From Candidatus Eiseniibacteriota bacterium (GTDB lineage Bacteria > Eisenbacteria > RBG-16-71-46 > CAIMUX01), in the NCBI GenBank assembly GCA_963833505.1, contig CAWHYG010000004.1, positions 223,025-287,024 on the forward strand: a DNA stretch of 64,000 bases, in the 5' to 3' direction. The position numbers were made by a program, and so were the translations under genes. This document shows, one piece after another, positions 1,727 to 43,731 of the stretch (position 1 is its first letter; every line of letters starts with the position of its first letter). The notes beneath the pieces are model-generated. The model saw only the letters and a program-made list of their open reading frames with translations, was not told the origin of the DNA and searched no databases.

Positions 1727-1806
1727 CTCACACGCTCCTTCCGCCGGCTCCGCTTCTGGGCCGGGGCGCAAAGCTCGAGGCCCAGCGTTCCGTAACGGTG
1801 CGCCTT

Positions 1807-1821
1807 CCGGCCTCGCGCCGG
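1807..1821 (-). terminator. Putative stem-loop terminator 3' of the 1831..4638 gene. It is the same 'ccggcctcgcgccgg' motif as at 61-75.
   Basis: Identical palindrome, positioned just after the stop at 1831-1833. Confidence 0.3.
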
Positions 1822-1830
1822 AGACGCGCG

Positions 1831-4638
1831 TCAGTGGTACAGGCTCTTGATCCGCCCCCAGGTCTGGATCGAGACGGGAACCGGGGGCGGAGGACCCGTA
1901 AGAATGTAAGCGCCGATCCCGATGGCCTGGGTCGGACCCCAGATCACCGACACGTTGCTCCAACCGGTCGGGTAGCCAATCCCGGGCGCGATGTTCGTCC
2001 GCGGCATGCCGCCGAAGCCGTCGAGGTCGGCGCCGATGAACCAGCCGGCGATTGCGCCCGGCCATTCGCCCCAGTAACCCACGAAGAAGTTGCCGGCGAG
2101 CACCTCGTCCGTCGTGTTGATGTCGGCCAGCGTGAAGCTCGGCCAGATCGCCGGCGTTGAAACGCTCAGGCCGTAGTCGACGTTGATGACGCTGGTCGGA
2201 TTGCAGCCGTCGGAGTTCCAGATGTAGGCGTCGGCCTTCTGGCCTTGGTACATGCCGGACTCGGTCGTGATGGCCCACTGCTGGCCGCAGCAACTACCTG
2301 TCGCGTCGTAGCCCTCGGCAAAGGCGCCGTAGTACGGCGCCACCTCGCCGCCATACCACCAGGTGAAGCCGTTCTCATAGGAGCCGTCCGCATTGAGCAG
2401 AAGCGTAGAGCCCGAGCACGGGTTGGTCCGAGGGCCCGCCTTGATCTTGCCGTGCCCGACGCCCACCGAGCGGGCCGTCCGGCCGGAGTGCGCCAGACCC
2501 CTACCGGTATAACGTTTGACCACCGGGCAGGGATTCGGGTTGCAGGTCGTGCCCGCGCCCATCCACTGGCCCTGGCAGTCGGTCTGCGTGGTGATGGTGC
2601 ATTGGCCGCAGATGCAGCAGGCGCCGGTGGGCGGCTGGGGGCAGGGGTTCGGCGTGCACCCCGTGTTCGCTCCCATCCACTGCCCCGGACAGTTCGCCTG
2701 GGTCGTGATGGTGCAAACCCCGTTGACGCAGCAAGCGCCGGCCGGAGGACACGGATTCGGATTGCACGTCGTGTTCGCTCCCATCCACTGCCCCGAGCAG
2801 TTCGCCTGGGTCGTGATCGTGCAGACCCCGTTGATGCAGCAGGCGCCCGCCGGCGGTTGCGGACACGGATTCGGCGTGCAGGACGTCCCCGCGCCCAGCC
2901 AGTTGCCGGTGCAGGCGCTCTGGAGGGTCACCGTGCAGCTTCCGTCAGGCTGGCAGCACGCGCCCGGCTGCGGGCAGGGATTCGGCGAGCAGGTCGTCCC
3001 CGTGCCCAACCAAGTGCCGGTGCAGGCACTCTGGAGGGTCACCGTGCAGCTCCCGTCCGACTGGCAGCACGCGCCCGGCTGCGGGCAGGGATTCGGACTG
3101 CACACCGTGTTCATGCCCTGCCACGTCCCGCCGGCCTGGGTGCACGCCGCCTGCGTCAAGAGCTGACAAGTGCCGTCCTTGAAACAGCAAGCGCCTTCAG
3201 GCTGCGGGCACGGGTTCGGCGTGCAGGTCGTGTTCGCGCCCATCCATTGGCCCGAGCAGGCAGACTGGGTCGTGATGGTGCAGGCCCCGCTGACGCAGCA
3301 GGCGCCTGACGGCGGGCACGGGTTCGGATTGCACACCGTGTTCGAACCCATCCACTGGCCTGAGCAGCCGGCCTGGAGCGTGATCGTGCAGGTCCCGTTG
3401 GCACAACATGCGCCCAGTTGGGGACAGGGATTCGGGCTGCAGACCGTGTTCGGGCCTTGCCACGAGCCACCGGCCTGCGAGCACTCCGCCCGGTTCAAGA
3501 GCTGGCAGGTGCCATCCGGAAAGCAGCAGGCGCCTTGGAGCTGCGTGCACGGATTCGGGTTGCACACGGTGTTCGGACCTTGCCACGTGCCGCCGGCCTG
3601 CAAGCACGCCGCCGGTCTCAAGAGCTGGCAGGTGCCGTCCTTGAAGCAGCAGGCGCCGATCGGCTGCGGACACGGGTTCGGCGTGCAGGTGGTGTTGTCG
3701 CCCTCATACGTGCCGCCCTGCGCGGTGCAGCCGGTTCTCGTCAGAACCTGGCAGCTTCCATCGGCGAAGCAGCAAGCGCCGGTCGGCCCCGTGCACGGAT
3801 TCGGCGTGCAGGTGGTCTTGTCGCCCTGATAGGTGCCGCCCTGCGACAAGCAGTTGGCCTTCGTCAGGACCTGGCAGGTGCCGTCGTTGAAGCAGCAGGC
3901 ACCCGTCGGCTGCGGGCAGGGGTTGGGATCGCACGAGGTGTTGTCACCCAGATACGTGCCGCCCTGCGAAGCGCAGTTGGTCTGCGTCAGGATCTGGCAG
4001 GTGCCGTCCTTGAAGCAGCACGCGCCCGTCGGCAGGACCACCGGGCAGGGATCATTGCCCGCCGTGCTGAACCCCATCGTTCCATAGGCATCGATTGGAT
4101 CCACCTTCGGCGGGATGGAGTCGTCGGTAAAGTCTCCCCCGAGCGACGGGTTCGGCCCGAGGGTGAAGGTGCCGGCACCTCCGGTGACGTACCCGGCGAA
4201 CCAATAGCACTCCACCAGGATCGTGGTCTGCGGGTTGTCCCAGATCACGGAGTTGCCTGTCCCCGAGCGCGGCCAGGTGTTGTCCGGGAACTCGACATCC
4301 CCGCAGGTGCCGTATTCCTGGGCTGGAATCGTGAGATTCCCGGAGTAGGTGATCCCGAAGCTCACGCCCTTGAGACGAGGGCTGCTGCCACCGACGAAGG
4401 CCGCATAGACCTTCCAGACCTTGACGGCTGACGGGCCGGACCCGTCGATCTCGCTCACCGCGTTGACACAGGAAGACAAGGGAGCGAGACCGCAATAGTC
4501 GGCAGTGTCCGCGGTGTAGGAGAGGTCGGGGTAGTGGACGATGAGAGTTCCGCCGGCATTCGGTCCGGCCAGGGCCCACGGGGCCGCGGTGCCCAAGGCC
4601 GCCATCACCACCAGGAGGACACTCACGATTCGCCGCAT
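1831..4638 (-). CDS. Large secreted Cys-rich repeat protein. It has a signal peptide, a conserved N-terminal approximately 85-aa domain, about 13 tandem 37-42-aa six-Cys repeats, a conserved approximately 190-aa C-domain and a 'TWGRIKSLYH' tail.
   Basis: 935-aa ORF with a GGAGG RBS 9 nt upstream and a hydrophobic signal peptide 'MRRIVSVLLVVMAALGTAAPWALA'. The repeat is 'GACCF(K/N/A/P)DGTCQ(L/V)LTxxxCxxxGGT(W/Y)QGxNTxCxPNPCPQP', alternating with a shorter 'GACCxNGxCTITTQxxCSGQWMGxNTxCxPNPCP' subtype. The C-terminus is shared with gene 85..1726. Confidence 0.8.
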   Translation of the reverse strand: MRRIVSVLLVVMAALGTAAPWALAGPNAGGTLIVHYPDLSYTADTADYCGLAPLSSCVNAVSEIDGSGPSAVKVWKVYAAFVGGSSPRLKGVSFGITYSGNLTIPAQEYGTCGDVEFPDNTWPRSGTGNSVIWDNPQTTILVECYWFAGYVTGGAGTFTLGPNPSLGGDFTDDSIPPKVDPIDAYGTMGFSTAGNDPCPVVLPTGACCFKDGTCQILTQTNCASQGGTYLGDNTSCDPNPCPQPTGACCFNDGTCQVLTKANCLSQGGTYQGDKTTCTPNPCTGPTGACCFADGSCQVLTRTGCTAQGGTYEGDNTTCTPNPCPQPIGACCFKDGTCQLLRPAACLQAGGTWQGPNTVCNPNPCTQLQGACCFPDGTCQLLNRAECSQAGGSWQGPNTVCSPNPCPQLGACCANGTCTITLQAGCSGQWMGSNTVCNPNPCPPSGACCVSGACTITTQSACSGQWMGANTTCTPNPCPQPEGACCFKDGTCQLLTQAACTQAGGTWQGMNTVCSPNPCPQPGACCQSDGSCTVTLQSACTGTWLGTGTTCSPNPCPQPGACCQPDGSCTVTLQSACTGNWLGAGTSCTPNPCPQPPAGACCINGVCTITTQANCSGQWMGANTTCNPNPCPPAGACCVNGVCTITTQANCPGQWMGANTGCTPNPCPQPPTGACCICGQCTITTQTDCQGQWMGAGTTCNPNPCPVVKRYTGRGLAHSGRTARSVGVGHGKIKAGPRTNPCSGSTLLLNADGSYENGFTWWYGGEVAPYYGAFAEGYDATGSCCGQQWAITTESGMYQGQKADAYIWNSDGCNPTSVINVDYGLSVSTPAIWPSFTLADINTTDEVLAGNFFVGYWGEWPGAIAGWFIGADLDGFGGMPRTNIAPGIGYPTGWSNVSVIWGPTQAIGIGAYILTGPPPPVPVSIQTWGRIKSLYH

Positions 4639-10929: not shown

Positions 10930-12045
10930 TCAGAAGATCTGCTTGATCTTGCTGAGGAGGCCGACGCGCCCGACGTCATTCCAGATGATCACGACCATGA
11001 GCGCCAGAAGGAGCACCATCCCCACCTGCTGGATCGCCAGCTTGATGCGGGTCGAGATCGGACGGCGGGTCACCGCCTCGATCACGATCATGGCAAGATG
11101 CCCTCCGTCCAGCACCGGAATCGGAAGGATGTTGAGCAGCCCGATGTTGATGCTGATGAAGGCGATGAAGAGCAGCAGCGAGACGGCGCCTCCTTTGGCG
11201 CTCTCGCCGGACCATTTGGCGATGGCGACCGGCCCCGCCAGATCGTGGATCGAGGCCTTGCCGGTGATGAGCATGCCGATGGTGTCGAGCCCGAGCTGCA
11301 GCCGGTCCCAGGTCAGACGAACTCCGGTCAAGAGCGCCAGTCCGAAACCCGCCGGCTGGTAGGTCGGGCGGGGACTGATCCCGATCACTCCGACGTCGAC
11401 GATCTTCCCGTTGACCGGCGCCTTCTGGCGCTCGGGAACGAGCGTCGCCTCCTTGTGCTCTCCGCCGTGATCCCACTCGACCTGGATGCTCTCGCCCGCC
11501 TTGCCGTGGATGATCTGGCTGAGCTGGTCCCAGGTGGCGACCGGCTGCCCGTTGACCGAGAGGATCCGGTCGCCGGGCGCGATCCCGGCATGTTCGGCGG
11601 GAAGTCCCGGGCTGATCGTGTCGACCACGGGATCGTGCACGACCGCGACCCCTTCGGCCAGGGTCACCCCGGAGTAGATTCCGGTCGCCAGCACGAAGTT
11701 CATGATCACGCCCGCGGTGATCACCAGGACCTTCTGCCAGGCCGCCTTGGACATGAACTCATCGGGCGCGCCGGTGATCGCCTCCGGAGATTCCAAGCTT
11801 TCATCGATCATCCCGGCCATCTTGACGTACCCGCCCAGGGGCACGGCGGAGAGGCAGTAGTCGGTGTCGCCGACCTTCTTCCCGACCAGCCGCGGCGGAT
11901 AGCCGATGGAGAACCTCTCGACCCGGATCTTCACCGCCTTGGCGGCGATGAAGTGGCCGAACTCGTGGATGAAGATGACGATTCCGATCACGATGATGAA
12001 AGGAACGAGCGTTCCCGTGACGAACGTGAGCAAGGGCTGCATCAA
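10930..12045 (-). CDS. rseP: RIP site-2 metalloprotease RseP
   Basis: 371 aa with 'HEFGHFIAAK' HExxH in a TM segment, an internal PDZ-like region and a C-terminal TM region. Confidence 0.85.
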   Translation of the reverse strand: MMQPLLTFVTGTLVPFIIVIGIVIFIHEFGHFIAAKAVKIRVERFSIGYPPRLVGKKVGDTDYCLSAVPLGGYVKMAGMIDESLESPEAITGAPDEFMSKAAWQKVLVITAGVIMNFVLATGIYSGVTLAEGVAVVHDPVVDTISPGLPAEHAGIAPGDRILSVNGQPVATWDQLSQIIHGKAGESIQVEWDHGGEHKEATLVPERQKAPVNGKIVDVGVIGISPRPTYQPAGFGLALLTGVRLTWDRLQLGLDTIGMLITGKASIHDLAGPVAIAKWSGESAKGGAVSLLLFIAFISINIGLLNILPIPVLDGGHLAMIVIEAVTRRPISTRIKLAIQQVGMVLLLALMVVIIWNDVGRVGLLSKIKQIF

Positions 12046-15437: not shown

Positions 15438-15816
15438 GCACCCAACCTAGCACAGGTCTTCGGCCGGCGCTCCTCGGGAGAGCAAGCCGGATCGGATCCG
15501 CCGACGACCCGGATTGGATCGTCTGACGACCCGGATTGGATCCTCCGACCACCCAGCCGCAACCACGCTATCGCCCACCGGGGCCGATCCGGACTGGGAG
15601 AAGGCGGTGGTCCGGCAGGTTCCGGGTGCCGCGTGGAAGATCCTGTGCGAAAATGCTCCGGAACGGAGGTCCGGCGGCGACCGATAACAACGGAAGAGCC
15701 TCGTGGAGCCCCGGGTGGATCCGCAGAGCCGACCCTGGCATGTCGGACGACGCGGTCCGGCGCGCGGGGCGGATCGGCGTGCTGCGCGAACCGGCATCAC
15801 GCGGAAGGAGAACAGT

Positions 15817-18771: not shown

Positions 18772-20136
18772 ATGGCGGACCGACGCATCATGCTGAGTGA
18801 GCAGGAGATTCCCCGGCAGTGGTTCAACATCACGGCGGACATGAAGGACAAGCCGCGGCCTCCGCTCCATCCGGGCACCGGCCAGCCGGTCGGACCGCAG
18901 GATCTGTCCCCGATCTTTCCGATGGCGTTGATCGAGCAGGAGGTCTCCGGCGAACGCTGGATCCCCATCCCGCCTGAGGTCCTGGACGTCTACCGGCTCT
19001 GGCGCCCCACGCCCCTTTTCCGGGCGGAGCGTCTGGAGCAAGCGCTGAAGACGCCGGCCCGCATCTTCTACAAATACGAAGGCGTGAGCCCGGCCGGAAG
19101 CCACAAGCCGAACACGGCGGTCGCCCAGGCCTTCTACAACAAGCGCGAAGGCGTGAAGAGGCTGGCCACCGAGACCGGCGCCGGCCAGTGGGGTTCGTCG
19201 CTGGCCTTCGCCTGCCGCCAGTTCGATCTGGAATGCAAGGTATACATGGTGCGCGTTTCGTACGACCAGAAGCCGTATCGCCGTTCGATGATGCACATCT
19301 GGGGCGCGACGGTCGTCCCCAGTCCGTCCGAGGACACGAACGTCGGCCGGAAGTTCCGGGCCGAGCAGCCGGACAGCCCCGGCAGCCTGGGCATCGCGAT
19401 CAGCGAAGCGGTCGAGGATGCCGCCAGCCGCGCCGACACCAACTACTCCCTCGGCAGCGTGCTCAATCACGTGCTGCTCCACCAGACCGTGATCGGGCTC
19501 GAAGCGCGGACCGCGATGGAGAAGATCGGCGCCTATCCGGACGTCGTGGTCGGCTGCGTCGGCGGCGGAAGCAACTTCGCGGGCATCGCGTTTCCTTTCA
19601 TTGCCGATCGGATCAACGGCCGTCCGGTGCGCGCGCTGGCCTGCGAACCGGCCTCCTGCCCGACCATCACGCGCGGCGAGTTCCGCTACGACTTCGGCGA
19701 CGCCGCGATGATGACCCCGCTTCTGGCCATGCACACCCTGGGCCACACCTTCATGCCCTCCCCCATTCATGCCGGAGGGCTCCGCTACCACGGCATGGCT
19801 CCCCTGGTGAGCCAGCTCCGGGAGAGCGGCCTGATCGAGGCCGTGGCGTTTCCGCAGAATGAGTGCTTCGAGGCCGGAGTGCTCTTCGCGGCCACCGAGG
19901 GGATCATCCCGGCGCCGGAGACGACCCACGCGATCCGCGGGGTCCTGGTCGAAGCGGAGCGGTGCCGGAAGGAGCAGAAGGCGGAGACGATTCTTTTCAA
20001 CTTCAGCGGGCACGGCCACCTGGATCTGGCCGCTTACGACGACTGGTTCGCCGGCAACCTCCAGGACCACGCGTTGCCGAAGGAAGAAATCCAGAAGGCG
20101 CTGGCCGGGCTCGCCGCCCTGCCGCGGATCTCTTGA
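18772..20136 (+). CDS. TrpB2-type tryptophan synthase beta-like PLP enzyme
   Basis: 454 aa with '[25 protein letters not shown]' and a lysine-PLP region. The length matches TrpB2. Confidence 0.8.
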
Positions 20137-20153
20137 TCTCGGGGAGTGCCGGA

Positions 20154-21161
20154 ATGAGGTGGATCACGTGGATGCTGGCGGTCCTGGCCGGAATCACAGC
20201 CGTTTCCGGAACCGCCCGGGCCGTCAACGTCGTGCCGTTCGCCAAGGCGGACTCGACCTCGCGTTCGTTGCTGGCGGCCGACCGCAAGTTCTCCGACGCC
20301 AGCCTCAAGAAGGGGATGCGGGCGTCCTTCCTCGATTATCTGACCGATGACGCGCTGCTCTTTCGCCCGCGGCCGGTCAACGGCAAGAAGTTCCTCACTC
20401 TCAAGGAAACCAATCCCCTGCTCCTGAGCTGGGAACCGACCTATGCCGAAGTCTCCATCTCCGGTGACTTCGGGCTCACGATCGGCACCTGGAAGGTCCG
20501 GCAGAAACCGGATGCGCAACCTCTGGGCCGGGGGGAATACGCCAACGTCTGGCGGCGCGGGCCCGGAGGACCCTGGCGCGTCGCGGTCGACATCGGGATC
20601 ACGCACGGGCGTCCGACTTTCGACCCGACTCCATGGGGCGTCTACCAGCGCCCGCCGATCACCTGGCGGGCCACCCGCCGCGGCGGCGCCTTCGATCTCT
20701 CTTCCGGGGCCCAGAGGCAACTGGTGGATTCCCTGGTCGGGGTCGATCGAACCCTGTCCGGAGAGACCGCCGGAAACCTGATCGGGGCGTACCGCCGCCT
20801 GGCGGCGGACGACTTCCAATGGTTCCGCATGTGGCGGTTTCCTTATCTCGGCTTGGATTCCGTGGACGTGGTGGCAGGCGCGGGCCGTTCGGCATTCCAC
20901 TCCTCCCCCGATTCCGCGCTGGTCGCGCGTTCCGGGGATCTGGGGTGCACCTGGGGTTACTCGGTTTCGAGAGGGTCCGAGAGTTCCCCGCCCGATTCCT
21001 CGAGCTATCTGCGCGTGTGGCGGCGCGAGCCGCTGGTCTCGGGAGTCTCGGGCCAGAAATCGTATCGGGTGGATTGGTCGGAATGGCGGCTCGTGATGGA
21101 GATGATGGATCCGATCAGGCCGAAGACCGCAGCGGACGTTCCAGGAGCCACGAAGCAGTAG
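20154..21161 (+). CDS. Secreted hypothetical protein with two NTF2-like (DUF4440/SnoaL-like) halves
   Basis: Signal peptide 'MRWITWMLAVLAGITAVSGTARA'. ATG at 20154 preceded by GGGGAG. The upstream in-frame extension to 19863 overlaps trpB2 and was rejected. Confidence 0.5.
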   Translation: MRWITWMLAVLAGITAVSGTARAVNVVPFAKADSTSRSLLAADRKFSDASLKKGMRASFLDYLTDDALLFRPRPVNGKKFLTLKETNPLLLSWEPTYAEVSISGDFGLTIGTWKVRQKPDAQPLGRGEYANVWRRGPGGPWRVAVDIGITHGRPTFDPTPWGVYQRPPITWRATRRGGAFDLSSGAQRQLVDSLVGVDRTLSGETAGNLIGAYRRLAADDFQWFRMWRFPYLGLDSVDVVAGAGRSAFHSSPDSALVARSGDLGCTWGYSVSRGSESSPPDSSSYLRVWRREPLVSGVSGQKSYRVDWSEWRLVMEMMDPIRPKTAADVPGATKQ

Positions 21162-21225
21162 CCCGGGCGAGCCGGCAGACGCGGCTTCCGCAGGCTGGAC
21201 CGGAGACCGCCTGCGAACACCGCCA

Positions 21226-21519
21226 GTGGCACAGATGGAGGCAGAAATGATCCGCAGTCTTCATTACGTGCTCGCGCTCTCATCCGCCGTTGCCGCAATT
21301 GGCATCTGGCTGGTGGTTCGCTCCACGCGACATCTACGTGTGGAGGCGCCCCGGATGGGTTTGGTGGGTCGACAGCGGTTCAAGCCGATCTGGGTATTGT
21401 ACAAGGAATACACAGATGCCGGTGCAAGACTCTATCAGGCCGGCGTTGTGCTGATGGTCGCCGCCACGATCGGCTTCGTGACGTTCTTCTATCTGGATCA
21501 CCACGCCGGCGGGCGATGA
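21226..21519 (+). CDS. Small two-TM membrane protein (hypothetical)
   Basis: 97 aa with two hydrophobic helices. Tightly spaced after the previous gene. Confidence 0.35.
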   Translation: MAQMEAEMIRSLHYVLALSSAVAAIGIWLVVRSTRHLRVEAPRMGLVGRQRFKPIWVLYKEYTDAGARLYQAGVVLMVAATIGFVTFFYLDHHAGGR

Positions 21520-21554
21520 AGAGTTCCGTCGCCGTTTCAGACCCCGACCCCAGG

Positions 21555-22196
21555 TCACCGCTTCCGGGGAGCCTTGTTCTGGGCTTCTCTCTTTCCGCCC
21601 GAGCCTGGCGCAGGTCGTGAGCGTCCCCGATCCGGTTCGGAGCCCCCCTCCGGCTCTGATCTCGGTCCGGACGCCGGCCGCTCGTCACCGGGGGTCCCTC
21701 CCGGCCCGCCGACTCCCTCTTGGTCCGCCTCGGAATCCGGGCCGCTGGCTCCCGACTCGGATTTGAAGAGGCCCCCGAGCCCTCCGCCCTTCGGCCGGAA
21801 CTGCCGGAATTCCTGCTCCATCTTCTGCACGCGCTCCCGGCGGCGCCGATCCGCCTCGCCGCCCAGGAACATGCGCTCCATCTCCTCGCGCTTGTCGCGT
21901 TCGCGGGAGTGGAATTCGGCCAGCTCTCCTTCGATCGAAGGTCCACTGCCGCCGCGCGGGAGCTCTTCGATCGGGACCGGGTCGCCGACGTCGAGCCGGA
22001 TCCCGAACGGCCCTTCCAGCCCTTTCAGGATTCCGCGCTGCCGCAGCTCGTGCACGAGGACGTAGGTCTTCTCGTTGGAGAACCCGAGGAGCGATGCCAC
22101 CTCCTCCGGGGTCGGGCTCCGCCCGTCTTTGTGCTGGAGGATCCGAACCGCCGCGACGAGCAGATGGCCTTCTTCGTAGCTGGGAGCTATGTCCAT
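21555..22196 (-). CDS. Hypothetical protein with a structured N-terminal domain and a long Gly/Arg/Glu-rich disordered basic tail
   Basis: 213-aa ORF with an ATG start. The N-terminal approximately 90 aa are non-repetitive. No recognisable domain. Confidence 0.4.
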   Translation of the reverse strand: MDIAPSYEEGHLLVAAVRILQHKDGRSPTPEEVASLLGFSNEKTYVLVHELRQRGILKGLEGPFGIRLDVGDPVPIEELPRGGSGPSIEGELAEFHSRERDKREEMERMFLGGEADRRRRERVQKMEQEFRQFRPKGGGLGGLFKSESGASGPDSEADQEGVGGPGGTPGDERPASGPRSEPEGGSEPDRGRSRPAPGSGGKREAQNKAPRKR

Positions 22197-22637
22197 GGCG
22201 CCGCCAGTCTAGCTCCGGCCTGGACCGGAAGGAAGAGCCGGTTCCGGGGTCCGGCTCCGGTGCGGCGTCCGGCCCCCGTTGGCCTCGATTCGAGGCGGGT
22301 GATTGGAGTCCGGCGCCGACGTCGCGCCCGGCAAGCCGGTCTTCGGACCCAACACATTCACGAGGTACCCGGCCCCTGCCCTCCGGCCTGGGAACACGGG
22401 ACCGGGCCAGGCGGATGGGAAGGACTGCGGGAGTCCTCCGGAAGCGCCGAAAATGAGATCCGGGGGGTTCCGGCGCCGGGCCGGTGGCGCCGCGGGGGCG
22501 GGAACACCCAAAACCGAGGGGTTTACAATCCTTCGGATTTAGGTCATGATTGGCGCTTGCGGAGTGCCGGGCAGGCCCGAGGAGGCGCGCCGGCGCAACA
22601 GGACGGTCTCTAGGCTGGATCGGGAGGTCTGAAGCAG

Positions 22638-22883
22638 ATGGGTCGAGAAAAGCGGATCGCAGAGCGGAGAGCCAAGGAGATCGTAGATCGAACCGTGGGC
22701 AAGCGCCCCGCGACCGAATCCGCCCGGCCGGCTGGCCAGGTCGCAACCCCCGGTCCGACCGCTCCTCTGGCGATCCAACTGGAGCCAACGGGGCTGGGCA
22801 AGGCCATCGTCCAGATCCTGGCGCTCTACCTGATCCCGATCGGCGCCGTCATCCTGATCGGAAAGCTGCTCTTCCGGCTCTAG
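22638..22883 (+). CDS. Small C-terminally membrane-anchored hypothetical protein
   Basis: 81 aa with the C-terminal TM 'AIVQILALYLIPIGAVILIGKLLF'. Confidence 0.3.
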   Translation: MGREKRIAERRAKEIVDRTVGKRPATESARPAGQVATPGPTAPLAIQLEPTGLGKAIVQILALYLIPIGAVILIGKLLFRL

Positions 22884-23084
22884 GTCCAGGCTGGAGGCGC
22901 GCTCCTTTGCCGCCGGGCTCTCTGTCGCCTGGGCGGGCTCCCATGGGAGCGGTGGCGCTGTAAGTTCGGCATCTTCCCCGGTGAGCCCCCGGGGCGTCTA
23001 CCTGCGGAGATTCGGAGATTCTGCCCGCATCGGGGACCCCTCTGCCTCGACCCTGCTGGCCGGTCCGCTTGGTCAGCGCGCCGG

Positions 23085-23892
23085 CTGGCTGGCCGGCCGC
23101 CGAACCAAGACGACCTGGTCAAGCGGGACGCTCTGATTCCGCCTGATTCCGCCGAACCATGACGAGTCGGTCATCCGGGACGCTCTGATTCCGCCGAACC
23201 ATGACGCCTCGGTCATCCGGGACGCTCTGATTCCGCCGAACCATGCCGCCTCGGTCATCCGGGACGCTCTGATTCCGCCGAACCATGACGACCTGGTCAA
23301 GCGGGACGCTCTGATTCCGCCGAACCATCACGCCTTGGTCAACCGGGACGCTCTGATTCCGCCGAACCATGACGCCTTGGTCAACCGGGACGCTCTGATT
23401 CCGCCGAACCATGACGACCTGGTCAAGCGGGACGCTCTGATTCCGCCGAACCATGACGAGTCGGTCATCCGGGACGCTCTGATTCCGCCGAACCATCACG
23501 CCTCGGTCAACCGGGACGCTCTGATTCCGCCGAACCATCACGCCTTGGTCAACCGGGACGCTCTGATTCCGCCGAACCATCACGCCTTGGTCAACCGGGA
23601 CGCTCTGATTCCGCCGAACCATGACGCCTTGGTCAACCGGGACGCTCTGATTCCGCCGAACCATGACGCCTCGGTCAACCGGGGCGCTCTGATTCCGCCG
23701 GACCATGACGACCTGGTCAAGCGGGACGCTCTGATTCCGCCGAACTACGACGCCTCGGTCAACCGGGACGCTCCTGTTCCGCCGAACTACGACGCCTCGG
23801 TCAACCGGGACGCTCTGGTTCCGCCGAACCAGGACGCCTCGGTCGTCCAAGGCGGTTCGCCCCCGCCGAGGTACGAGGTTCTGGTCAACCGG
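23085..23892. repeat. Tandem array of about 18 units of a 42-bp repeat. Each unit has a 24-bp invariant core 'gacgctctgattccgccgaaccat' plus an 18-bp segment with 8 related variants. The first unit carries a 10-bp internal duplication and the last units are degenerate.
   Basis: Units begin at 23179, 23221, 23263 and so on with exact 42-bp phase. Both the + frame (DALIPPNHDxxVxR)n and the - frame (VRRNQSVPVDxGVM)n are open but have only TTG starts. Confidence 0.85.
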
Positions 23893-24329
23893 GGCGGCCC
23901 ACCGGCGCGTGACGAACTCGTCTCATAAACCGACCGAGATTCCGCTCCCGATCGCCGATTCCGGGCATTCCGATCACGGATCCAGAGCCGAGCCGAAGCC
24001 GGGAGATCCCCCCCACAACGTGGCTCTGAGGGATACCCGCGCGGCCCCAGCGGTCAACAGTTGGTCGAACCTCCTTCCCGCTCGGAGCGACGACAGCCCT
24101 CCGCTTCCACCGGGGCGGACTCGACTCATCCGGAAACCGGTCTCGGGTTCCTGGTATCGCCGGCACAGGAGCAACCAATGATCACGCATAGAGCTACGAT
24201 TGCCAGGTCGCGCATTCTCTCCACTCCAGGCCTTCCTCGCCAGCCTCCTCGCCCACGTTATTCATGAACTCCCGGCTGCGGCAGCGGTACCACGGAGTTC
24301 CAGGCCCCCATGCCGGGCTCGCGGCATTC

Positions 24330-25602
24330 CTATCGGATCAGCGTCAACCTGCTGGTCAGCACTCTGGGTCCGGTCGCCAATCGGATCACGTATATGCCGG
24401 ACGGCAGCGGCCTGCCGCCTTCATCGCAGGAATCCCAGCGGATCGAATGTAGGCCGGCGTCCTCTCGTTCACTCACCAGACGCCGGATCTGCCGGCCGGA
24501 AACATCGAGGACGTCCAGGACGACGCTGACGGGAGCCGCCAAGCCGTATCTGATCGCCACCGGGCCGGCGCTGGGGTTCGGTTCCGGCTCAGGCCGCAGG
24601 AATCGAGCGACCTCCCCCACCTGGGCCGAGGAGGTCGGGCACGGGTTCGGGTTGCAGGGGACGCCGTAGCCCTGGAAGAACCCGAGCTCCTGCCAAAGCG
24701 GCGACGCCATTATTTACACCGGTGCCCATGGGGTACCATCCACTTCCATCCCACCGGGCGATGTAGCTCGCCGGTTTCCCGCCGGCCTGGGTGAAAGCTC
24801 CCCCGGCAATCAGGTCCCCGTTATAGACTGCCAAAGCAACGACTGAACCGTTCGTCCCGGAACCGAGGGGCTGCCAGGTCGTGCCGTTCCATGCGGCGAC
24901 GTGGTTCGCTCCTTGCCCGCCCGCCAGCGGAAAGTAGCCGCCCGCAACCACCGTGCCGTTATAGTCCGCCAGTGACTCGACTTCTCCGCTCATCCCTGAC
25001 GACATGGGTGCCCACGTGGTGCCATTCCACTCCGCGATCATGTTCGCCGCGAACCCCCCCGCCGTGTGGAAGCCCCCGCCGACGATGAGATTCGACGCGA
25101 AGGGAAGGAGCACCTGCACGAAGCCATCGCTGATGCCTGACCCCAGCGGCCACCAGGCATTGCCGTCCCACCTCGCGATCGAGTTCGCCGGACGACCGCC
25201 GGCGTGGCCGAAATACCCGCCCACTATCAAGCTTCCCGAGTACACAGCAGCCGCGTAGGCCTCGCCGTTGACTCCCGCGCCGAGGGGCTCCCAGCTCGTG
25301 CCGGACCACTGAGCGACGTAGGAGGCGTTGTCTGGCTCTATGCCCTGGAACGAACCCACCGCGATCAGCGTCCCGTTATAGACCGCCAGTCCCGACACTG
25401 GGGTTTCCGCAGGCGGCCCGCACAGTCCAGCGAGCGTCCCGCACCAATCGGCGCGGGACTGGCACGGCAGCACAAGAAGGCCGGCAATCCCCAGCAGGAG
25501 AACCCAAGCGCCGTGGCTTGCGGTCCGGTGGTTGCCGGATGCCCGCAAAACAGGGAAACCCCACCGACCTGTCCGCGACGCCCCTTCAACGAGCGAGCTC
25601 AT
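24330..25602 (-). CDS. Secreted beta-propeller-like repeat protein with a 'CNPNPCP' linker and a FlgD-Ig/T9SS-like C-terminal domain. Split into two ORFs by a frameshift near 24600-24700.
   Basis: ORF 24589..25602 carries a signal peptide and repeated 'W(N/D)G(T/S)xWxPLGxG' blades. ORF 24330..24710 carries 'GYGVPCNPNPCP' plus '...GIYVIRLATGPRVLTSRLTLIR'. The two ORFs overlap by 120 nt in different frames. Confidence 0.6.
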
Positions 25603-26177
25603 CTCTGAACCTCCATGTGGGCCTGTTCATGACGCTGCCCGACCGTCTCCAGCTGTGGCCGAGGTGCGGTGTCTGGGCCTGGCCACTTCCGGCCGATGAT
25701 CACCCTCGCGGGAGAACCACGACCGGCGCCGTTGGCTGTTCTCAACCACATGAGGCGGCCTCGGTGTGCGTTGTGGGCGGGGCAATGGGAGTCTGCCGAA
25801 AGCTGCGCGACCTGTGGGACCCCGCGACTCATAACGCGCCTCCGCTCGCTGATCATTCTGCACTCCGCACGGCTCGGTTCATTGGAGCGTATATAATCAT
25901 CCCGCATCAGAACCGGGCTGTCAATTCTGATGTTGACTCGCCATGCGAAGGTCACACGACAGCAACTGGCGCGTACCACGGGAGGCCGAGGGACCGCCGG
26001 ACCCGGATCCGCTGCCCCCTTTCTGCCTGGCCCCGCAACGGTCGCGAATCCGGGGCCACGATCCCCTCGTCCCCACGGCACTACGGGCGGGTGCGACCGC
26101 CGCCGTGGCGACGCGTGCCGGAAGGGGCGCAGCCGCGAGGGCGTGTCAGCCGGCCTGCGGCCTCCCTCCCCTCAGGA

Positions 26178-28499
26178 TCAATCCGGCGGCAGATCGTTCC
26201 CCACCTGGATGAAGACGTAGGCGTTCCGGCTCTTCTCCCAGGCAATGCCCCCCTGCACCGGCCCGATCGGCGTCCTCTGCAGCAATCCGCTCTCGAGCCC
26301 CTTCTCCGCCGCCTCGTGCCGGAGCAAGGTCACGCTGTCCCCGCGGAACAGGGCCGTTCCCCGCGTCCAGAAGCTGAGGTTGGTCGCGAATCGAAGCCCG
26401 ACAGTGGCGGAAACGTCGCCGGCGAAGGGCGCGTACAACCCGGGCTCGAAACGGCCCAAGGTCGCACGGGTCAGATCGAGGCGGTGCCAGTAGCGGAAAG
26501 GCAGCCCTCGCGGATTGAGCCCGGCCGCATCGACTCCGGGAATCAGCGACAGCCGGCCCGCGGACACGCTCCAGTCGGCCGAGCCGTTCCACGACGTCAC
26601 GACCTCCCTGGATAGATTCTCGCTGGAGAACTCGGAACGCAGGGTGGCCTGCCCGCCGCGCGTGGGCAGCGCGCGCTCGTCCGAGTTGTCGAAGATGACG
26701 CTCACCGATGCCGTCCGGTCGAGGTCGTTCCAGTCCGGAACGCCGACCGGCTTCTCGCCGCGATCCCGGCGCACTCCAAGGCCGATCATGAAGAGCGCGT
26801 CTTGCCCGCTGGCCAGGCTGGTGCTGAGCTGCGCGTCATGGACGGTGTGCCGGAACTGGTCGGGGGAATCCTCCGAGTAGTCGTCCCGGATGGCGCGGAG
26901 GCGGAGGCTCAGGCCGAAGGGAATTCCGCGCAGCCGGCTGGATCGGACTCCGGTTTCCAGGCCGTTCTGGAACTGCCCCAGGTAGACCGTTCCGTAGATC
27001 GTCTCTCCGAGGTGCAGCAGGTTGTCCCGGCGAAGCTCGGCGTCGAGGTTCATGGATCGGCCGTTGTCGTAGAGGAGGCCGAACGACAGATAGGTGGGAA
27101 CGCGCTCCTCCAGATTGAGGAGGATCCCGACCCGCCCGCTGTCCGGCTGGCTGAGGTACGGCCACACCGCCTGGTAGTTGCCCGTGGCGTAGAGGCGACG
27201 GAGCCCGCGGTCGAGCGCGTCGAGAGAGAAGGCGTCTCCCTTGTCGAAGCCCAGCTCACGCTTCGGAACCCAGACGTACGAGAGCATCTGTTCCTCGAAC
27301 CGCACGAACTGCACCTGGAGCGGCCCGAGGCTCCGCATCAGTTCCTGCGGCGTCGGCCTGGGACGGCGGAGGGGAATCGTCCCCGGCGGAAACAACGCGC
27401 GAATCTTGTCCATCTGCGCCCAGGTCGCCCGATATCCGGCCTCGAACAGCTCTTCCGGACGGCTGAAATCCGTCGCGGACCGGCCGGCCAGATCCGGCTT
27501 GATCCAGACGTCCCAGCCGGTGATCGAGAGGGAATCGACCCTTTGGGACAGCACCTGCAGAACGGCCTGCGCCACCCGGTAGGGGTCGTCGCTCACCGGC
27601 CCTTCTTCCGGGTGCGCGGTGCAATCCACGGCGATCACGCGGTCGCATCCCATTTCCCGGCTCAGGTCGACGGGCAGGTTGTTGACGGGACCGGGGTCCA
27701 CGAAGAGGCGCACCGGATCCCGGCTGGGAATGGGCGGGAAGGCCAGGGGCACCGACATGCTCGAGCGGATGGCTCGGGGAAGATCGCCATCCCGGAACAC
27801 CACGATCGATCGCGAGTCCAGATCGAAGGCCATGGTCCGGAATGGAATGGGCAGGCGATCGAAGCTCCCGCGCGCGGCGAGGGCGGCCGGCGTGGAGTTC
27901 TCGATCAACATCCAGTTCAGATTGAAATCGTTGACCAAAGATCGGGGAAGCCGGTACTCCCATCCGGAGAGGTAGACGCCGAAGGTCTGGGGGTTGAGGA
28001 CGCGCTTCTCGAAGACGTTGCGCTCCCGGTATTCGCCGGGAGAGCGAAAAAGCTCGCTTCGATGCGCGATCGCCTTGAGCTGGGGGATGGTGCAGCCGGA
28101 GGCGTAAAGCCCTCCCACGACCGCGCCGATCGAGACCCCGGCGATTCCGTCGATCGGGATGCCCGCCTCCTCGAGCGCCTGAAGGACGCCGACGTGCGCG
28201 AGGCCGCGGGCGCCGCCGCCGGAGAGGACCAGCGCGACCCGCGGCATCCGGGCGGTCGTGTCAACCGGAGCGCCGGGAAGCGGGCGCGACGCACCGAACG
28301 CGGCCAGCGCCGTGTCGGTCGGGGCCGGACAGCCCAGAGCGAAAATCGCGGCCGCCAAGGCTGCGCGCGCAACCCTTCGCTGGAAGGCATGAATCCGCTT
28401 CGGATGCGTAGGCGGCGTCCAGATCACTCCCCTCTCCCGATTCGGCGGTCGGGACGGATGGATTCTGGCGGTCAAGCGCGTCCGGAGCAAGGTGATCAT
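26178..28499 (-). CDS. Patatin-like phospholipase fused to a C-terminal Omp85-family outer-membrane beta-barrel (PlpD-like, type Vd-like)
   Basis: 773 aa with N-terminal 'VLSGGGARG' and 'GVSIGA' (GxSxG) patatin motifs and 'DGG' further on. The C-terminal approximately 350 aa are beta-strand-rich and end in an aromatic residue. Confidence 0.75.
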   Translation of the reverse strand: MITLLRTRLTARIHPSRPPNRERGVIWTPPTHPKRIHAFQRRVARAALAAAIFALGCPAPTDTALAAFGASRPLPGAPVDTTARMPRVALVLSGGGARGLAHVGVLQALEEAGIPIDGIAGVSIGAVVGGLYASGCTIPQLKAIAHRSELFRSPGEYRERNVFEKRVLNPQTFGVYLSGWEYRLPRSLVNDFNLNWMLIENSTPAALAARGSFDRLPIPFRTMAFDLDSRSIVVFRDGDLPRAIRSSMSVPLAFPPIPSRDPVRLFVDPGPVNNLPVDLSREMGCDRVIAVDCTAHPEEGPVSDDPYRVAQAVLQVLSQRVDSLSITGWDVWIKPDLAGRSATDFSRPEELFEAGYRATWAQMDKIRALFPPGTIPLRRPRPTPQELMRSLGPLQVQFVRFEEQMLSYVWVPKRELGFDKGDAFSLDALDRGLRRLYATGNYQAVWPYLSQPDSGRVGILLNLEERVPTYLSFGLLYDNGRSMNLDAELRRDNLLHLGETIYGTVYLGQFQNGLETGVRSSRLRGIPFGLSLRLRAIRDDYSEDSPDQFRHTVHDAQLSTSLASGQDALFMIGLGVRRDRGEKPVGVPDWNDLDRTASVSVIFDNSDERALPTRGGQATLRSEFSSENLSREVVTSWNGSADWSVSAGRLSLIPGVDAAGLNPRGLPFRYWHRLDLTRATLGRFEPGLYAPFAGDVSATVGLRFATNLSFWTRGTALFRGDSVTLLRHEAAEKGLESGLLQRTPIGPVQGGIAWEKSRNAYVFIQVGNDLPPD

Positions 28500-28686: not shown

Positions 28687-29709
28687 ATGGTCCTGAAAGA
28701 CATCCCCATCGGCATCGGCACCTGGGCGTGGGGCGATCGGCGCTTCTGGGGCTACGGCCGATCCTACGGGGAACAGGATCTCAAAGAGGCGTTCGACGCG
28801 GCTCTGTCCTCGGGAGTGCGCTGCTTCGACACCGCCGAGACTTATGGGCAGGGGCAATCGGAGACCTTGCTGGGCTGTTTTCTTCAGGAGCCCCGCGAGT
28901 CTGGCGAATCCAGCGCGTCCGGCAAGTCTGGCAAGTCGGGCGCGTCCACCGGGTCCGGCAAGGCCGGCGGGTCCGGCGAATCCAGCGCGTCCGGCATGGC
29001 CAGCGAGTCCGGTCAATCCGTCTACGTCGCCACGAAGTTCATGCCCTTTCCCTGGAGGATCAGCGCCTCTTCCCTCGCCCACGCGCTGCGGCGAAGCCTG
29101 ACACGGCTTGGTCTCGCGCACGTCGATCTGTACCAGATCCACTGGCCGATGCCGCCGCGTCCTCCCGAGTCGTGGATGGAGCCGCTGGCCCGGGCGGTCG
29201 AGCAGGGACTGATCCGCGAGGTCGGCGTCAGCAACTACAGCGCCGCGCAGACGCGCCGCGCGCAGGAAGCTCTGGCGCGGCATGGAATCCCGCTCGCTTC
29301 CAATCAGGTCGAATACAACCTGGCCCAGCGCAAGATCGAGCGGAACGGCGTGCTCGAGACCTGCCGGAACCTCGGAGTTCGTGTCATCGCCTACAGCCCG
29401 CTGGCCATGGGCGTCCTTTCCGGCAAGTACACGCCGGAGAATCCGCCGTCCGGAGCCCGCGCCTTCCTCTACCGGAAGGGCAAGCTGCGGAGGATGCGCC
29501 CCTTGCTCGAGTTGCTGGCCGAGATCGCCCGTTCCCGGGGTCGGACCTCGAGCCAGGTGGCTCTGAACTGGCTGATGCAGAAAGGAACCCTTCCGATTCC
29601 CGGCGTCAAGAACGCCGCTCAGGCCACCGAAGTCGCCGGCGCGCTGGGCTGGTCGCTGACCCGGCCTGAATTGGAGCGCCTCGACGCCGCCAGCAGCGCG
29701 TTTGGGTAA
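28687..29709 (+). CDS. Aldo/keto reductase carrying a roughly 40-aa Gly/Ser-rich low-complexity insertion
   Basis: The N-terminus 'IGIGTWAWGDRRFWGYG...FDTAETYGQG' and the C-terminus 'IPGVKNAAQATE' are canonical AKR. The insert is 'ESGESSASGKSGKSGASTGSGKAGGSGESSASGMASESGQS'. Confidence 0.85.
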   Translation: MVLKDIPIGIGTWAWGDRRFWGYGRSYGEQDLKEAFDAALSSGVRCFDTAETYGQGQSETLLGCFLQEPRESGESSASGKSGKSGASTGSGKAGGSGESSASGMASESGQSVYVATKFMPFPWRISASSLAHALRRSLTRLGLAHVDLYQIHWPMPPRPPESWMEPLARAVEQGLIREVGVSNYSAAQTRRAQEALARHGIPLASNQVEYNLAQRKIERNGVLETCRNLGVRVIAYSPLAMGVLSGKYTPENPPSGARAFLYRKGKLRRMRPLLELLAEIARSRGRTSSQVALNWLMQKGTLPIPGVKNAAQATEVAGALGWSLTRPELERLDAASSAFG

Positions 29710-41193: not shown

Positions 41194-43731
41194 CTACGGC
41201 CTGGCGGGATAGATCTCCTGGTCGATCCCCAGCCCCTTGGAGTTCGGCGCCCGGCGCGTCAACCATTCGAGGTTGTTCCCGCGATCGGGACGCGACAGAG
41301 GATGCGCCTTGACGCCGGCGCTGTCGGACTCCTCCCACTGGTACACGTCCTGCCCTTGCGTGTCCATGAAGATGCCAATGGACTCGAGGTCGTCCCGGAA
41401 GGAACGAAACGGCGTGTACCGGGTGGCAGTGCCCATCGGCGGCGTGTCGGTCCAGCCGTTGGGCGGGCCTAGCAGCTCATAGCGCACGTGATAGACGTCG
41501 TTGCCGCGCCGGTCCCAGAAGAGCCCGATGGAGTTGAGGTCCGCCGAGCCGCCGCAGTGGCTCCGCCAGTAGTACTCGTCATTGCCGTCGCCGTCGATCG
41601 AAATGCCGATCGACCCGTCGCGCGCGTGTCCTTGATACTGGTTCACAGCCACGTCGTTGTCGACGTTGTAGCGATCATCCCCGGATAGATCGACCTGGCA
41701 TCCAATGGCGAAGTGGGCTCCCGCGCCCAGGGAGTACTTGCCGTTCCGGTAGGTGTCGTTGCCGCCGAGGTCTTCCAGGATGCCGAGCGACCACCAGTAG
41801 CCCGCTCCGTCGCTCCAGGCCGTGGCGTGATAGGAGTCGTCCCCGGCGCCGTCGACCAGAACGCCGATGCCTCCGGCCAGCGAGTGGCCGTCTCCAAGAT
41901 CGGCGCGGCGTCCCTGGCCGACTCCCTGGGCCATGGACACCGAGAGACCGTTGTACAGAGGATCCGGATTTCCGTCGTCCCGCGCCAGGTAGGAATCATT
42001 CCCTTTCACATCGATCAGGAAGCCGGCGCCCAGCGTGCTGCCTAATCCCTGGGCGTCGTAGCCACAGACGTAGTGGTCATCTCCGGCCTGATCGACCAGC
42101 AGACCGACTCCGACCATGCCCATGCCTTCGCCCTCGTGGGTGTCCAGCGTGTAGGTGTCGTTCCCGCCGAAGTCCATCAGGATCCCGGTCCCGAAACAGC
42201 CCATGCCCAGGCCGGCTTCGGCACAGCGATAGTGATCGTCGCCCGAAAGGTCGAAGATCGCCCCCAAGCCGAAAAGGCCGCAGGAGAGCGAAGCCGGCTC
42301 CGGACCGCCCTCGTAGGTGTCGTTGCCCGCCAGATCCAGAACCAGGCCGATCGGCTGAGTCCGGCCGAGCGGAACGCCGTGCACTCCCCGGTAGAGATCA
42401 TCGCCGCCGAGGTCGAGCGTGAAGAAGGCCCGGTCGTCGATGGTGTCGCGGCCTGTGCCGAAGATGTGGACCGGACCCAGAGGCGTCGTGAAACGGCAGC
42501 CTCGGAAGGCGGGCGGAATGGCATTCGCCGACGAATCGCCCGCTCCGGCGCGCTGGTACTCCCGTAACGCGCGCCGGAAATGCGCCAGGAAGACAACCGA
42601 GCCAAAAGCCATATAGTCGCGATCAAATCGATCCAGCATTTCGAGCGAGGTTCGGGAGAGCGTGGCGGGTTGGTCCAGACGGGCGTCCCGCCAAGGAGCC
42701 ATCGCGAAGTGATAGCGGGCGGTCAGGGCGGCCGTGTCGGCGAATGCCCCTGCGGGAGCTTCGGAAGCCTGATTGCGTGCGCTCGCCTTGGAGTGCTTGC
42801 TCGGCGGCTTGGCCTGACCGCTTGCCGCCGAGGAATTCCCCGCCTCGAAGACCTGCGCGAAAACCGGGTCGTCATAGGCCTTCTCCAGCCAGGGCGCCGC
42901 GTCGTCAGCCCCGAGCACGATTCGGACCACCAATCTCTGGACTCGCAGTGGAAGCTGGGCGAAGGCCGCGCGCTCGGATGCCGCCAGCTCGTATGGATCG
43001 CCATGGACTTCAGTGTGCCGGAGATACGCCTCGAGCGCCTCGAGCGGAGAGGCCTGCTTGGGAACCCATTCGGGGCCCCAGGTCAGGCTGTCGGGCAAGG
43101 GGATGTTCCGGCCCGCCGACACGTCGGTCAGCGCGTAGGCGCGAGTGACCAGCTCCGCCGGATCCTGCGCGTTCTGGATCAGGTCCTCGGACAGTTTGCC
43201 GCTGAATCGCGGAATGGCACGGACGTCGTGAAAGAGATTCCGCACCGTGCGCAGGATGGAGTCGTCGTGCCCGTAATTGGCCATCTCCTCGGTCGTGAAG
43301 CCGATTGGCCGGCCGGTGCGGCCCAGTTTCGCCAGGACCGCGTCCCAGAGGCTGTCCGGGATCGCCAGATCGGCCCGGGCTGGGCCTGGCCAGGACAGCC
43401 GCGGATACCCGGCGGCCGGGGCCGCGGCGTTCGGAGCTGACTTGGCTTTGACTGCCTTGCCCGAGGCCAGCTTGGCCGAGGCCGGCTTGCCCGAGGCCGC
43501 CTTGCCCGAGGCCGGCTTGCCCGGGGCAGCCTTGCTCGAGACCAGCTTGGCAGAGATCGGCTTGTCCGAGGTCGCCTTGTCCGGGGCCGCCGTGCTCGGG
43601 GCCATTGTGGCCAAGGCGTTGCGCCCGTTGCCGGCGCTAGTCGGACTTATCCAAGCAACCACGGGCCGGGAATCGAACAGGGTTGCGATCAGAGCAATCA
43701 GGATCCAGGCGGACCAACGGACACGGTTCAC
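41194..43731 (-). CDS. Large secreted repeat protein with 'DL(S/A)G(N/D)DxY...G.G.G.L.D..G.D.Y' beta-helix-like repeats and an N-terminal (KPASG)n low-complexity linker
   Basis: Probable GTG start at 43731 after an AAGGGGG run, followed by a signal peptide 'VNRVRWSAWILIALIATLF'. Fifteen-bp DNA repeats at about 43440-43590 encode K-P-A-S-G. Confidence 0.6.
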   Translation of the reverse strand: MNRVRWSAWILIALIATLFDSRPVVAWISPTSAGNGRNALATMAPSTAAPDKATSDKPISAKLVSSKAAPGKPASGKAASGKPASAKLASGKAVKAKSAPNAAAPAAGYPRLSWPGPARADLAIPDSLWDAVLAKLGRTGRPIGFTTEEMANYGHDDSILRTVRNLFHDVRAIPRFSGKLSEDLIQNAQDPAELVTRAYALTDVSAGRNIPLPDSLTWGPEWVPKQASPLEALEAYLRHTEVHGDPYELAASERAAFAQLPLRVQRLVVRIVLGADDAAPWLEKAYDDPVFAQVFEAGNSSAASGQAKPPSKHSKASARNQASEAPAGAFADTAALTARYHFAMAPWRDARLDQPATLSRTSLEMLDRFDRDYMAFGSVVFLAHFRRALREYQRAGAGDSSANAIPPAFRGCRFTTPLGPVHIFGTGRDTIDDRAFFTLDLGGDDLYRGVHGVPLGRTQPIGLVLDLAGNDTYEGGPEPASLSCGLFGLGAIFDLSGDDHYRCAEAGLGMGCFGTGILMDFGGNDTYTLDTHEGEGMGMVGVGLLVDQAGDDHYVCGYDAQGLGSTLGAGFLIDVKGNDSYLARDDGNPDPLYNGLSVSMAQGVGQGRRADLGDGHSLAGGIGVLVDGAGDDSYHATAWSDGAGYWWSLGILEDLGGNDTYRNGKYSLGAGAHFAIGCQVDLSGDDRYNVDNDVAVNQYQGHARDGSIGISIDGDGNDEYYWRSHCGGSADLNSIGLFWDRRGNDVYHVRYELLGPPNGWTDTPPMGTATRYTPFRSFRDDLESIGIFMDTQGQDVYQWEESDSAGVKAHPLSRPDRGNNLEWLTRRAPNSKGLGIDQEIYPARP

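Follow-up and report, generated by a model that had tools for sequence, protein, structure and literature searches.

A 42-bp tandem repeat array in a Candidatus Eiseniibacteriota genome, tentatively read as a coding-derived minisatellite

A gap between two convergent genes in a Candidatus Eiseniibacteriota genome holds an array of 42-bp tandem repeats, each consisting of a nearly invariant 24-bp core followed by a variable 18-bp segment, which raises the question of whether the array encodes a repeat protein, presents a series of binding sites, or is a minisatellite. The array lies in a stretch of 64,000 nucleotides (contig CAWHYG010000004.1, positions 223,025 to 287,024 of the forward strand), referred to below as the window, and an original prediction made from the letters of this stretch had listed all three possibilities. 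The explanation that best accounts for the results, adopted here tentatively, is a lineage-private minisatellite that derives from coding sequence, is kept uniform by slippage and unequal recombination, and does not operate as a gene at this locus. The array is not a working gene here: a usable start codon and a Shine-Dalgarno motif are both missing, the frame is broken, a stop codon follows the last unit, and both flanks are non-coding. Moreover, the array forms a module of about 1 kb with some 200 bp of its 3' flank. The genome contains at least two copies of this module, and the one outside the window is joined to the initial 31 codons of a truncated ISL3 transposase. None of the tests run indicates a current function.

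Organization of the array

Results revealed that the 42-bp periodicity spans 23097–23928 and comprises about 19 head-to-tail units, with those at the 3' end progressively decayed. Tandem Repeats Finder (TRF) recovered a single dominant array at 23143–23844 (period 42, 16.7 copies, 92% matches, score 1137), and copies of the 24-bp core, GACGCTCTGATTCCGCCGAACCAT, are spaced at exactly 42 bp between 23179 and 23809. The array therefore consists of head-to-tail units in the 10–100-bp range with a high identity far beyond chance, and the earlier reading of the locus as a minisatellite was borne out in this respect. A 30-bp degenerate pattern derived from the unit had seven matches in the window, with none expected in shuffled sequences.

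The array does not start at 23085, as had been proposed, but at 23097 with a truncated first unit (23097–23126, + strand; CCGCCGAACCAA GACGACCTGGTCAAGCGG, translated as 'PPNQDDLVKR'), the + frame of which is not that of the remaining units. The first full unit (23127–23178, + strand) is 52 bp long and contains a 10-bp tandem duplication of TGATTCCGCC (23134–23143 and 23144–23153). This duplication interrupts the 42-bp phase, which had been described as exact and which holds for 23179–23809, and it shifts both open frames, ending the open reading frame (ORF) of the - frame. With one copy removed, a perfect 42-bp unit is restored, the core of which is the 13th perfect one. The other 12 perfect cores, at 23179–23641, belong to the units occupying 23179–23682 (+ strand). 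The essentially invariant core was thus confirmed in 13 interior units, and the 18-bp segment showed exactly the eight variants originally counted, which differ at + frame codons 9, 10, 11, and 13. At the nucleotide level, eight sites vary among the 13 interior units, all within 15 bp of the 42-bp unit (positions 25–39), a clustering with a simulated P of 0.0012.

Following the perfect cores, five progressively decayed units (23683–23892, + strand) differ from the consensus at 5, 3, 6, 7, and 15 positions, which amounts to about 36 substitutions with no indel and no + frame stop. The array is closed by a terminal pseudo-unit (23893–23928, + strand; 26 differences) that reads 'GGPPARDELVS' and ends with a TAA stop at 23926–23928, beyond the end first assigned to the array.

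The array is also not composed of clustered regularly interspaced short palindromic repeats (CRISPR), in agreement with the original prediction. It resembles a CRISPR in the alternation of a conserved 24-bp segment with a variable one, in its fixed period, and in its degenerate terminal unit, whereas its 'spacers' are 18 bp long and near-identical, the eight variants differing at no more than eight positions and several of them recurring two to three times. Leader-like features are absent, and Pfam (30 ORFs at 5–41 kb of the window) and PADLOC (the two array-frame proteins and four adjacent ORFs) detected no cas genes or defence domains in the neighboring genes. A diversity-generating retroelement was also considered and rejected, with no reverse transcriptase found and with substitutions that are not adenine-specific.

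A second copy of the array and its 3' flank

A search of the + frame against 5.8 billion protein clusters yielded a single relative, P0001 (280 aa, 74% identical over the repeats), and the same search with the - frame yielded no match. P0001, the 81-aa protein encoded upstream of the array (P0002), and a patatin protein encoded downstream of it (P0075) are each recorded on a 683,100-bp contig, and the window does not encode P0001. The matching contig together with this absence suggests that P0001 very probably represents a second locus, i.e., a paralogous array, on the same contig. The array unit is thus found at two loci, both apparently on one 683,100-bp contig, and the core occurs nowhere else in the 64 kb.

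The array of P0001 has about 10 units, compared with about 19 here, and both arrays open with a 'PPNQ' unit and close with the identical 11 residues 'GGPPARDELVS'. The stop codon that comes straight after DELVS in the window is absent from P0001, and the 3' flank of the window differs further from P0001 by a frame-breaking 5-nt difference. The next 200 bp or so are shared as two patches, PHNVAL[G/R]DTRAA and GQQLV..PS.SER.QPSASTGA, which lie in one frame in P0001 and in two frames here. In the window, this common flank occupies 23929–24120 (+ strand), with the patches at 24011–24046 (PHNVALRDTRAA) and 24052–24120 (GQQLVEPPSRSERRQPSASTGAD), and has the codon usage of non-coding sequence. What was duplicated is the array together with its 3' flank, about 1 kb in all.

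At the other end of P0001, residues 1–31 align start to start with WP_011486164.1, a protein annotated as an ISL3-family transposase (NC_007950.1), with 15 of the 31 residues identical, indicating that P0001 is a chimera of an insertion sequence (IS) fragment, an array, and a tail, and that neither copy has a native N-terminus. The P0001 frame remains open for 142 codons outside its array. The 5' flank in the window (22884–23096) is non-coding in all six frames, offers no start codon in the frame of the first unit, and has no clear homology to the P0001 leader. A candidate alignment of this flank with the P0001 leader and ISL3 reached a score of 34 and was set aside as unconvincing, and tblastn detected no ISL3 transposase in the window.

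Beyond this genome, the unit appears to be private to its lineage. When P0001 was searched exhaustively with phmmer against 1.84 billion representatives, 73 matches were obtained, all of which, apart from P0001 itself, were unrelated repeats with a period of 12–16 residues. Searches of other genomes, proposed earlier as a check for the 24-bp core, were negative: no match was found in GTDB genomes to the back-translated peptides or to the 30-bp degenerate DNA pattern, in JGI metagenomes to the 30-bp pattern, in viral contigs to the exact 24-bp core, or in plasmids and phages by blastn. A relaxed two-core pattern retrieved 93 JGI metagenome loci and two viral loci, all unrelated (e.g., the 'IPPN...IPPN' motif of FKBP and other repeats). 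Searches of Pfam, NCBIfam, PADLOC, PDB sequences, and Rfam returned nothing meaningful. The only homolog is thus the paralog P0001 of the same genome, with neither a homolog in another organism nor a signal of purifying selection found.

As a separate observation, several of the loci met in the relaxed search (L007, L014, L015, L019, L021, L024, L027, L033–L035, L040, L044, L048, L063, L084, and L088) are unrelated metagenome contigs, several of them labelled human gut, in which a 36-bp tandem unit, TTCCGCCGAAC-N4/5-GTGAGGGGGA(C/G)T(T/C)TCC, recurs; it was met because it contains the 11-mer of the relaxed pattern.

Coding origin and competing explanations

Per-codon log-likelihood scores were computed with a codon model built from 24 confident ORFs of the window. 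The + frame of the array scored +0.425 per codon, close to 14-codon chunks of true genes (+0.44, sd 0.37), and the decayed units scored +0.269 in the same frame, compared with a mean of -0.56 (sd 0.57) for wrong frames. In addition, the G+C content by codon position in the + frame (0.74/0.40/0.79) follows the pattern of real genes in the window, so that the composition of this frame is coding-like. The codon usage and G+C pattern, together with decayed units free of indels and stops, suggest that the unit is coding-derived in the + frame. The - frame scored +0.086 and yields an arginine-rich peptide, which is what antisense frames give at high G+C. Both flanks (22884–23096 and 23929–24329) scored between -0.05 and -0.57 across the six frames, i.e., as non-coding sequence.

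At this locus, ATG and GTG are absent from the + frame, and in neither frame does an ATG, GTG, or TTG occur ahead of the array. The earliest possible start of the + frame is a TTG at 23335, inside unit 5, which is preceded by CCGAACCATCACGCC and lacks a Shine-Dalgarno motif, whereas a GGAG-type motif accompanies 21 of the 29 genes in the window; the + frame is therefore not a complete ORF with a start codon and a ribosome-binding site. The original description of two frames without an ATG or an obvious ribosome-binding site accordingly applies to the + frame only, as the - frame has 14 in-frame ATGs, several of them with GAGG 4 nt upstream. Likewise, the two frames said to be open across the whole array are open at 23137–23925 (+) and 23122–23850 (-), and both are broken at the 10-bp duplication. 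Since any stop-free unit with a length divisible by three gives an open frame over an entire array, these open frames are uninformative by themselves. No protein from the array locus was found via either frame in the protein collection, in which the neighboring proteins of the contig are present.

The substitutions among interior units fall on codon positions 1, 2, and 3 in a ratio of 2:4:2, nearly all of them change the amino acid, and the decayed units behave similarly. Synonymous changes account for one of the eight variable sites in the + frame and for two in the - frame. The proposed check on codon-position-specific variation therefore turned up no synonymous excess, and the pattern is the neutral expectation rather than that of purifying selection. 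On/off phase variation, another suggestion of the original prediction, is not supported, because the gain or loss of a 42-bp unit never shifts the frame.

Considering these results, the unit most likely came from a tandem-repeat ORF, to judge by its 14-codon length and its coding-like composition and codon usage in the + frame. In the history proposed here, such a repeat of coding origin would have been copied, would have lost its native start, and would now be upheld by slippage and recombination only. Replication slippage and unequal recombination could grow, shrink, and homogenize the array, and this homogenization may account for the uniform interior, the truncated 5' unit, and the graded 3' decay. 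The array is most likely not a new system and belongs to a known kind, the bacterial minisatellite. Among such loci, the mycobacterial interspersed repetitive units (MIRU) place the same unit at many intergenic positions, where a small ORF overlaps the stop and start codons of the flanking genes and allows translational coupling. The present array is similar to bacterial minisatellites and variable number tandem repeats, MIRU included, in having head-to-tail units of tens of bp with a length divisible by three in a G+C-rich genome, in its intergenic position at more than one locus, in the copy number that differs between loci (about 19 here and about 10 in P0001), and in its uniform interior and decayed edges. 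It differs from them in having no sequence similarity to known families, in being present at two loci, and in having all its variation in one 15-bp stretch. Translational coupling of the MIRU type is absent here: the array lacks a start codon and is separated from the upstream stop by 213 bp of non-coding sequence.

Several points weigh against this reading. Neither copy has a native N-terminus, so the coding origin of the unit is inferred, and the P0001 locus is known at the protein level. The evidence from codon usage comprises only 14 independent codons, and by our estimate about one in five random units would match as well in its best frame. The copy number and the order of interior units are those of one assembly. 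Furthermore, the clustering of variable sites next to a core that is invariant in 13 units is not predicted for a neutral relic and may point to a constrained core or to a diversifying variable part; this 15-bp clustering is the one observation that the coding-derived minisatellite leaves unexplained. If the minisatellite reading is true, the array is an ordinary one, of use mainly for marking strains, for alerting to assembly problems, and as a cautionary case for gene calling: its paralog was given a 280-aa protein annotation despite being a chimera of repeats and an IS fragment. If the invariant core and the 15-bp variation instead reflect selection, the array could be a phased binding platform or a diversifying repeat protein, either of which would be new for this poorly known phylum.

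The alternative that survives best shares the expansion mechanism and removes the coding past: the array would be a neutral minisatellite that never encoded protein, its ORF-like look being accidental and P0001 a spurious chimeric ORF call. Such an origin would fit the lack of a native start at either locus, the start of P0001 being borrowed from the ISL3 fragment, as well as the 2:4:2 ratio without synonymous excess, the non-coding flanks, and the lack of a homolog in any other organism in the protein searches; long open frames are also common at the 66% G+C of the window. It fits less well with a period that is a multiple of three, with a + frame score equal to the mean of real genes, with about 36 substitutions in the five decayed units that produced no indel and no stop, and with a P0001 frame that stays open for 142 codons beyond its array. 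A never-coding array is thus considered a secondary possibility, on the unlikely side but to be taken seriously.

Another explanation turns to the core itself, which holds an imperfect 16-bp dyad, TGATTC-CGCC-GAACCA, with five of six arm positions complementary, repeated every 42 bp, i.e., every 4.0 helical turns. The array might therefore be a cis-acting set of protein-binding sites, each an invariant dyad with a tolerated spacer, presented on one face of the DNA. A known precedent is sopC of plasmid F, which, as described in PMC3177203, consists of 12 direct 43-bp repeats, each with a 16-bp inverted repeat bound by SopB. The two are alike in their period (42 and 43 bp), in the dozen or more tandem copies, and in the placement of a 16-bp dyad in the conserved part, whereas the dyad here is imperfect with a non-palindromic center, the array is chromosomal and present in two genome copies, the sequences are not similar, and no parA- or parB-like genes adjoin the array (Pfam). 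Consistent with binding sites, variation is restricted to the spacer part, leaving the core invariant in 13 units (P about 0.001); every interior unit carries the dyad, the 6-bp arms of which match perfectly in the unit at 23809; and the decayed units, free of indels, keep their phase. On the other hand, by our estimate a dyad with five of six matching positions is expected by chance somewhere in a 42-bp unit, decay in the terminal units affects core positions freely, and the 64 kb contain no solitary core outside the array. No ParA, ParB, or array-specific DNA-binding gene was found within about 18 kb on either side, no canonical parS site was found within three mismatches, and the location is among chromosomal housekeeping genes; the adjacent 213-aa protein with helix-turn-helix (HTH)-like matches is conserved in relatives that lack the array. 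The regulatory array envisaged in the original prediction therefore gained a phased dyad and no dedicated binding or partition gene nearby, and is considered unlikely. Its more specific form, in which the dyad, repeated about 17 times at four helical turns, would nucleate a large nucleoprotein complex as a chromosomal analog of sopC carried on a copied module of about 1 kb in an uncultured Eisenbacteria-like lineage, is less likely still.

About as unlikely as the general binding array, and placed just behind it, is a translated protein of proline-rich 14-residue repeats with variable surface residues, which would start at an internal TTG, at ATGs of the - frame, or from the upstream gene. Tandem-repeat protein genes with hypervariable positions are well known, e.g., the repeats of transcription activator-like effectors (TALE) and of surface proteins. 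The array shares with them an in-frame repeat in which each unit combines a conserved scaffold, RDALIPPNH, with a small number of variable residues, whereas its unit has 14 residues and no confident predicted fold, its frame is broken, it has no homolog outside the genome, and it lacks a start codon, a ribosome-binding site, a signal peptide, and a flanking domain. The gene-like codon usage of a + frame that is open to its natural end, the restriction of variation to four of 14 residues, and the 14 ATGs of the - frame, some with GAGG upstream, would be in line with translation. An AlphaFold model from the single sequence also showed one short strand per unit in parts of the model, but its confidence was uninformative (predicted local distance difference test (pLDDT) 55, predicted template modeling score (pTM) 0.30). 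Against translation, the + frame offers neither ATG nor GTG and no Shine-Dalgarno motif, although strong motifs of this kind are used in the genome; its reading is shifted at the 10-bp duplication, and the 213-bp stretch that separates the TAG stop of the upstream gene from the array scores as non-coding. In addition, no signal peptide, domain, or family match was found for the array frames (Pfam, NCBIfam, PADLOC, and PDB sequences), the - frame has a score of only 0.086 with its antisense-like, arginine-rich peptide, and the public annotation carries no gene call here. Read-through from the 81-aa gene, which is in the frame of the first unit, was dropped as an option because the intervening 213 bp score as non-coding. 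The repeat protein with specificity residues put forward in the original prediction is thus not supported at this locus, given the unusable start, the broken frame, the non-coding flanks, and the lack of a synonymous excess.

It is very improbable that the array, its copy number, or its 10-bp duplication arose from mis-assembled repeats. Over 19166–23138, the window is matched without a difference by an independent Logan assembly (run ERR11594402), which ends exactly where 31-mers stop being unique and so confirms the left array junction only, base for base. This k=31 assembly fails to cross the array, short reads cannot establish the order within runs of identical units (e.g., two consecutive HALVNR units), and a nearby gene looks frameshifted, all of which would suit an artefact. 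Besides the confirmed junction, a real array is indicated by the graded 3' decay, the truncated 5' unit, and an independent paralog that opens and closes with the same units, and a clean 10-bp tandem duplication is atypical of sequencing error.

Least probable of all is a structured minus-strand RNA with a hairpin of 5 + 6 bp and a GGCG loop in each unit and a 10-nt quasi-palindrome at the unit junction: although four units fold better on the minus strand (z = -3.8) than on the plus strand (z = +1.0) and the consensus unit still has z = -2.9 when compared with tandem arrays of shuffled units, 1% of which do as well, a selected structure was rejected because, by our mapping, seven of the eight variable sites fall in predicted stems and break pairs with no compensating changes, and because four units of the actual array fold less stably (-81 kcal/mol) than four consensus units (-99.6 kcal/mol). 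There is also no Rfam family, the only match being mir-584 at 28 bits against a gathering score of 80, and no promoter or terminator consensus, and folding of the 3' flank gave no signal on either strand.

Genomic setting

The array lies between convergent genes, as originally described, in a gap of 1446 bp (22884–24329) that separates the stop of the 81-aa gene (22883, + strand) from the stop of an ORF with a FlgD_ig tail (24330, - strand). The 81-aa gene (22638–22883, + strand, TAG stop) encodes a conserved tail-anchored membrane protein, P0002, and ends 213 bp upstream of the array on the same strand. Next to it, on the opposite strand, is the gene of the 213-aa protein (21555–22196, - strand), which gives weak HTH-like matches (Sigma70_r3, excisionase) and ends in a low-complexity tail. 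This protein falls outside the established families and is conserved beside the small membrane protein in relatives. Both genes are clearly orthologous to their counterparts in one relative locus, L097. Downstream of the array, a beta-propeller ORF (337 aa) and a FlgD_ig/sorting-tail ORF (126 aa) occupy 24330–25602 on the - strand and overlap in different frames at 24589–24710; they are probably one frameshifted gene, as either a pseudogene or an assembly indel would produce.

In four Eisenbacteria-like relative loci, the genes of the patatin and of the small tail-anchored protein are convergent and 37–90 bp apart, whereas in the window the same pair is 3.3 kb apart (22884–26177). By comparison with these relatives, the array sits, together with the beta-propeller and FlgD_ig ORFs, in a 3.3-kb lineage-specific insertion. 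The nearest patatin relatives are 52–55% identical, and one at 48% is from Candidatus Eisenbacteria; in a fifth, more distant relative (P0099, L102), a different gene adjoins the patatin. A 20-nt direct repeat with 80% identity (TTCCGGCTCTAGGTCCAGGC at 22872–22891 and TTCCGGCTCTTCTCCCAGGC at 26224–26243) lies near the ends of the insertion and may be due to chance. In L097, the 89-bp gap between the patatin gene and an 84-aa gene, at the position of the insertion in the window, holds an 11-bp tandem repeat in four copies (11943–11988).

The surrounding sequence, about 18 kb on either side, otherwise consists of housekeeping genes, including those for transketolase, 6PGD, G6PD, an RseP-like protein, EF-P, PPK2, a TrpB-like protein, and ThrRS. 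No partition, replication, recombinase, cas, or reverse-transcriptase genes were found within the same distance, and scans for promoters, terminators, and inverted repeats around the array found nothing at the array. Other tandem repeats were also observed in the window. Two large ORFs (469 and 935 aa) at 85–4638 on the - strand are made of 108–123-bp tandem repeats, with several overlapping TRF arrays. A 22-bp repeat in three copies (15487–15554) lies between the TPR and PPK2 genes, and a repeat of 9/18/36 bp (28895–29019) is located at the 5' end of an aldo-keto reductase ORF. Finally, a 15-bp repeat in 10 copies (43454–43603) and 147-bp repeats (51867–52550) lie inside ORFs of 857 and 1177 aa, respectively.

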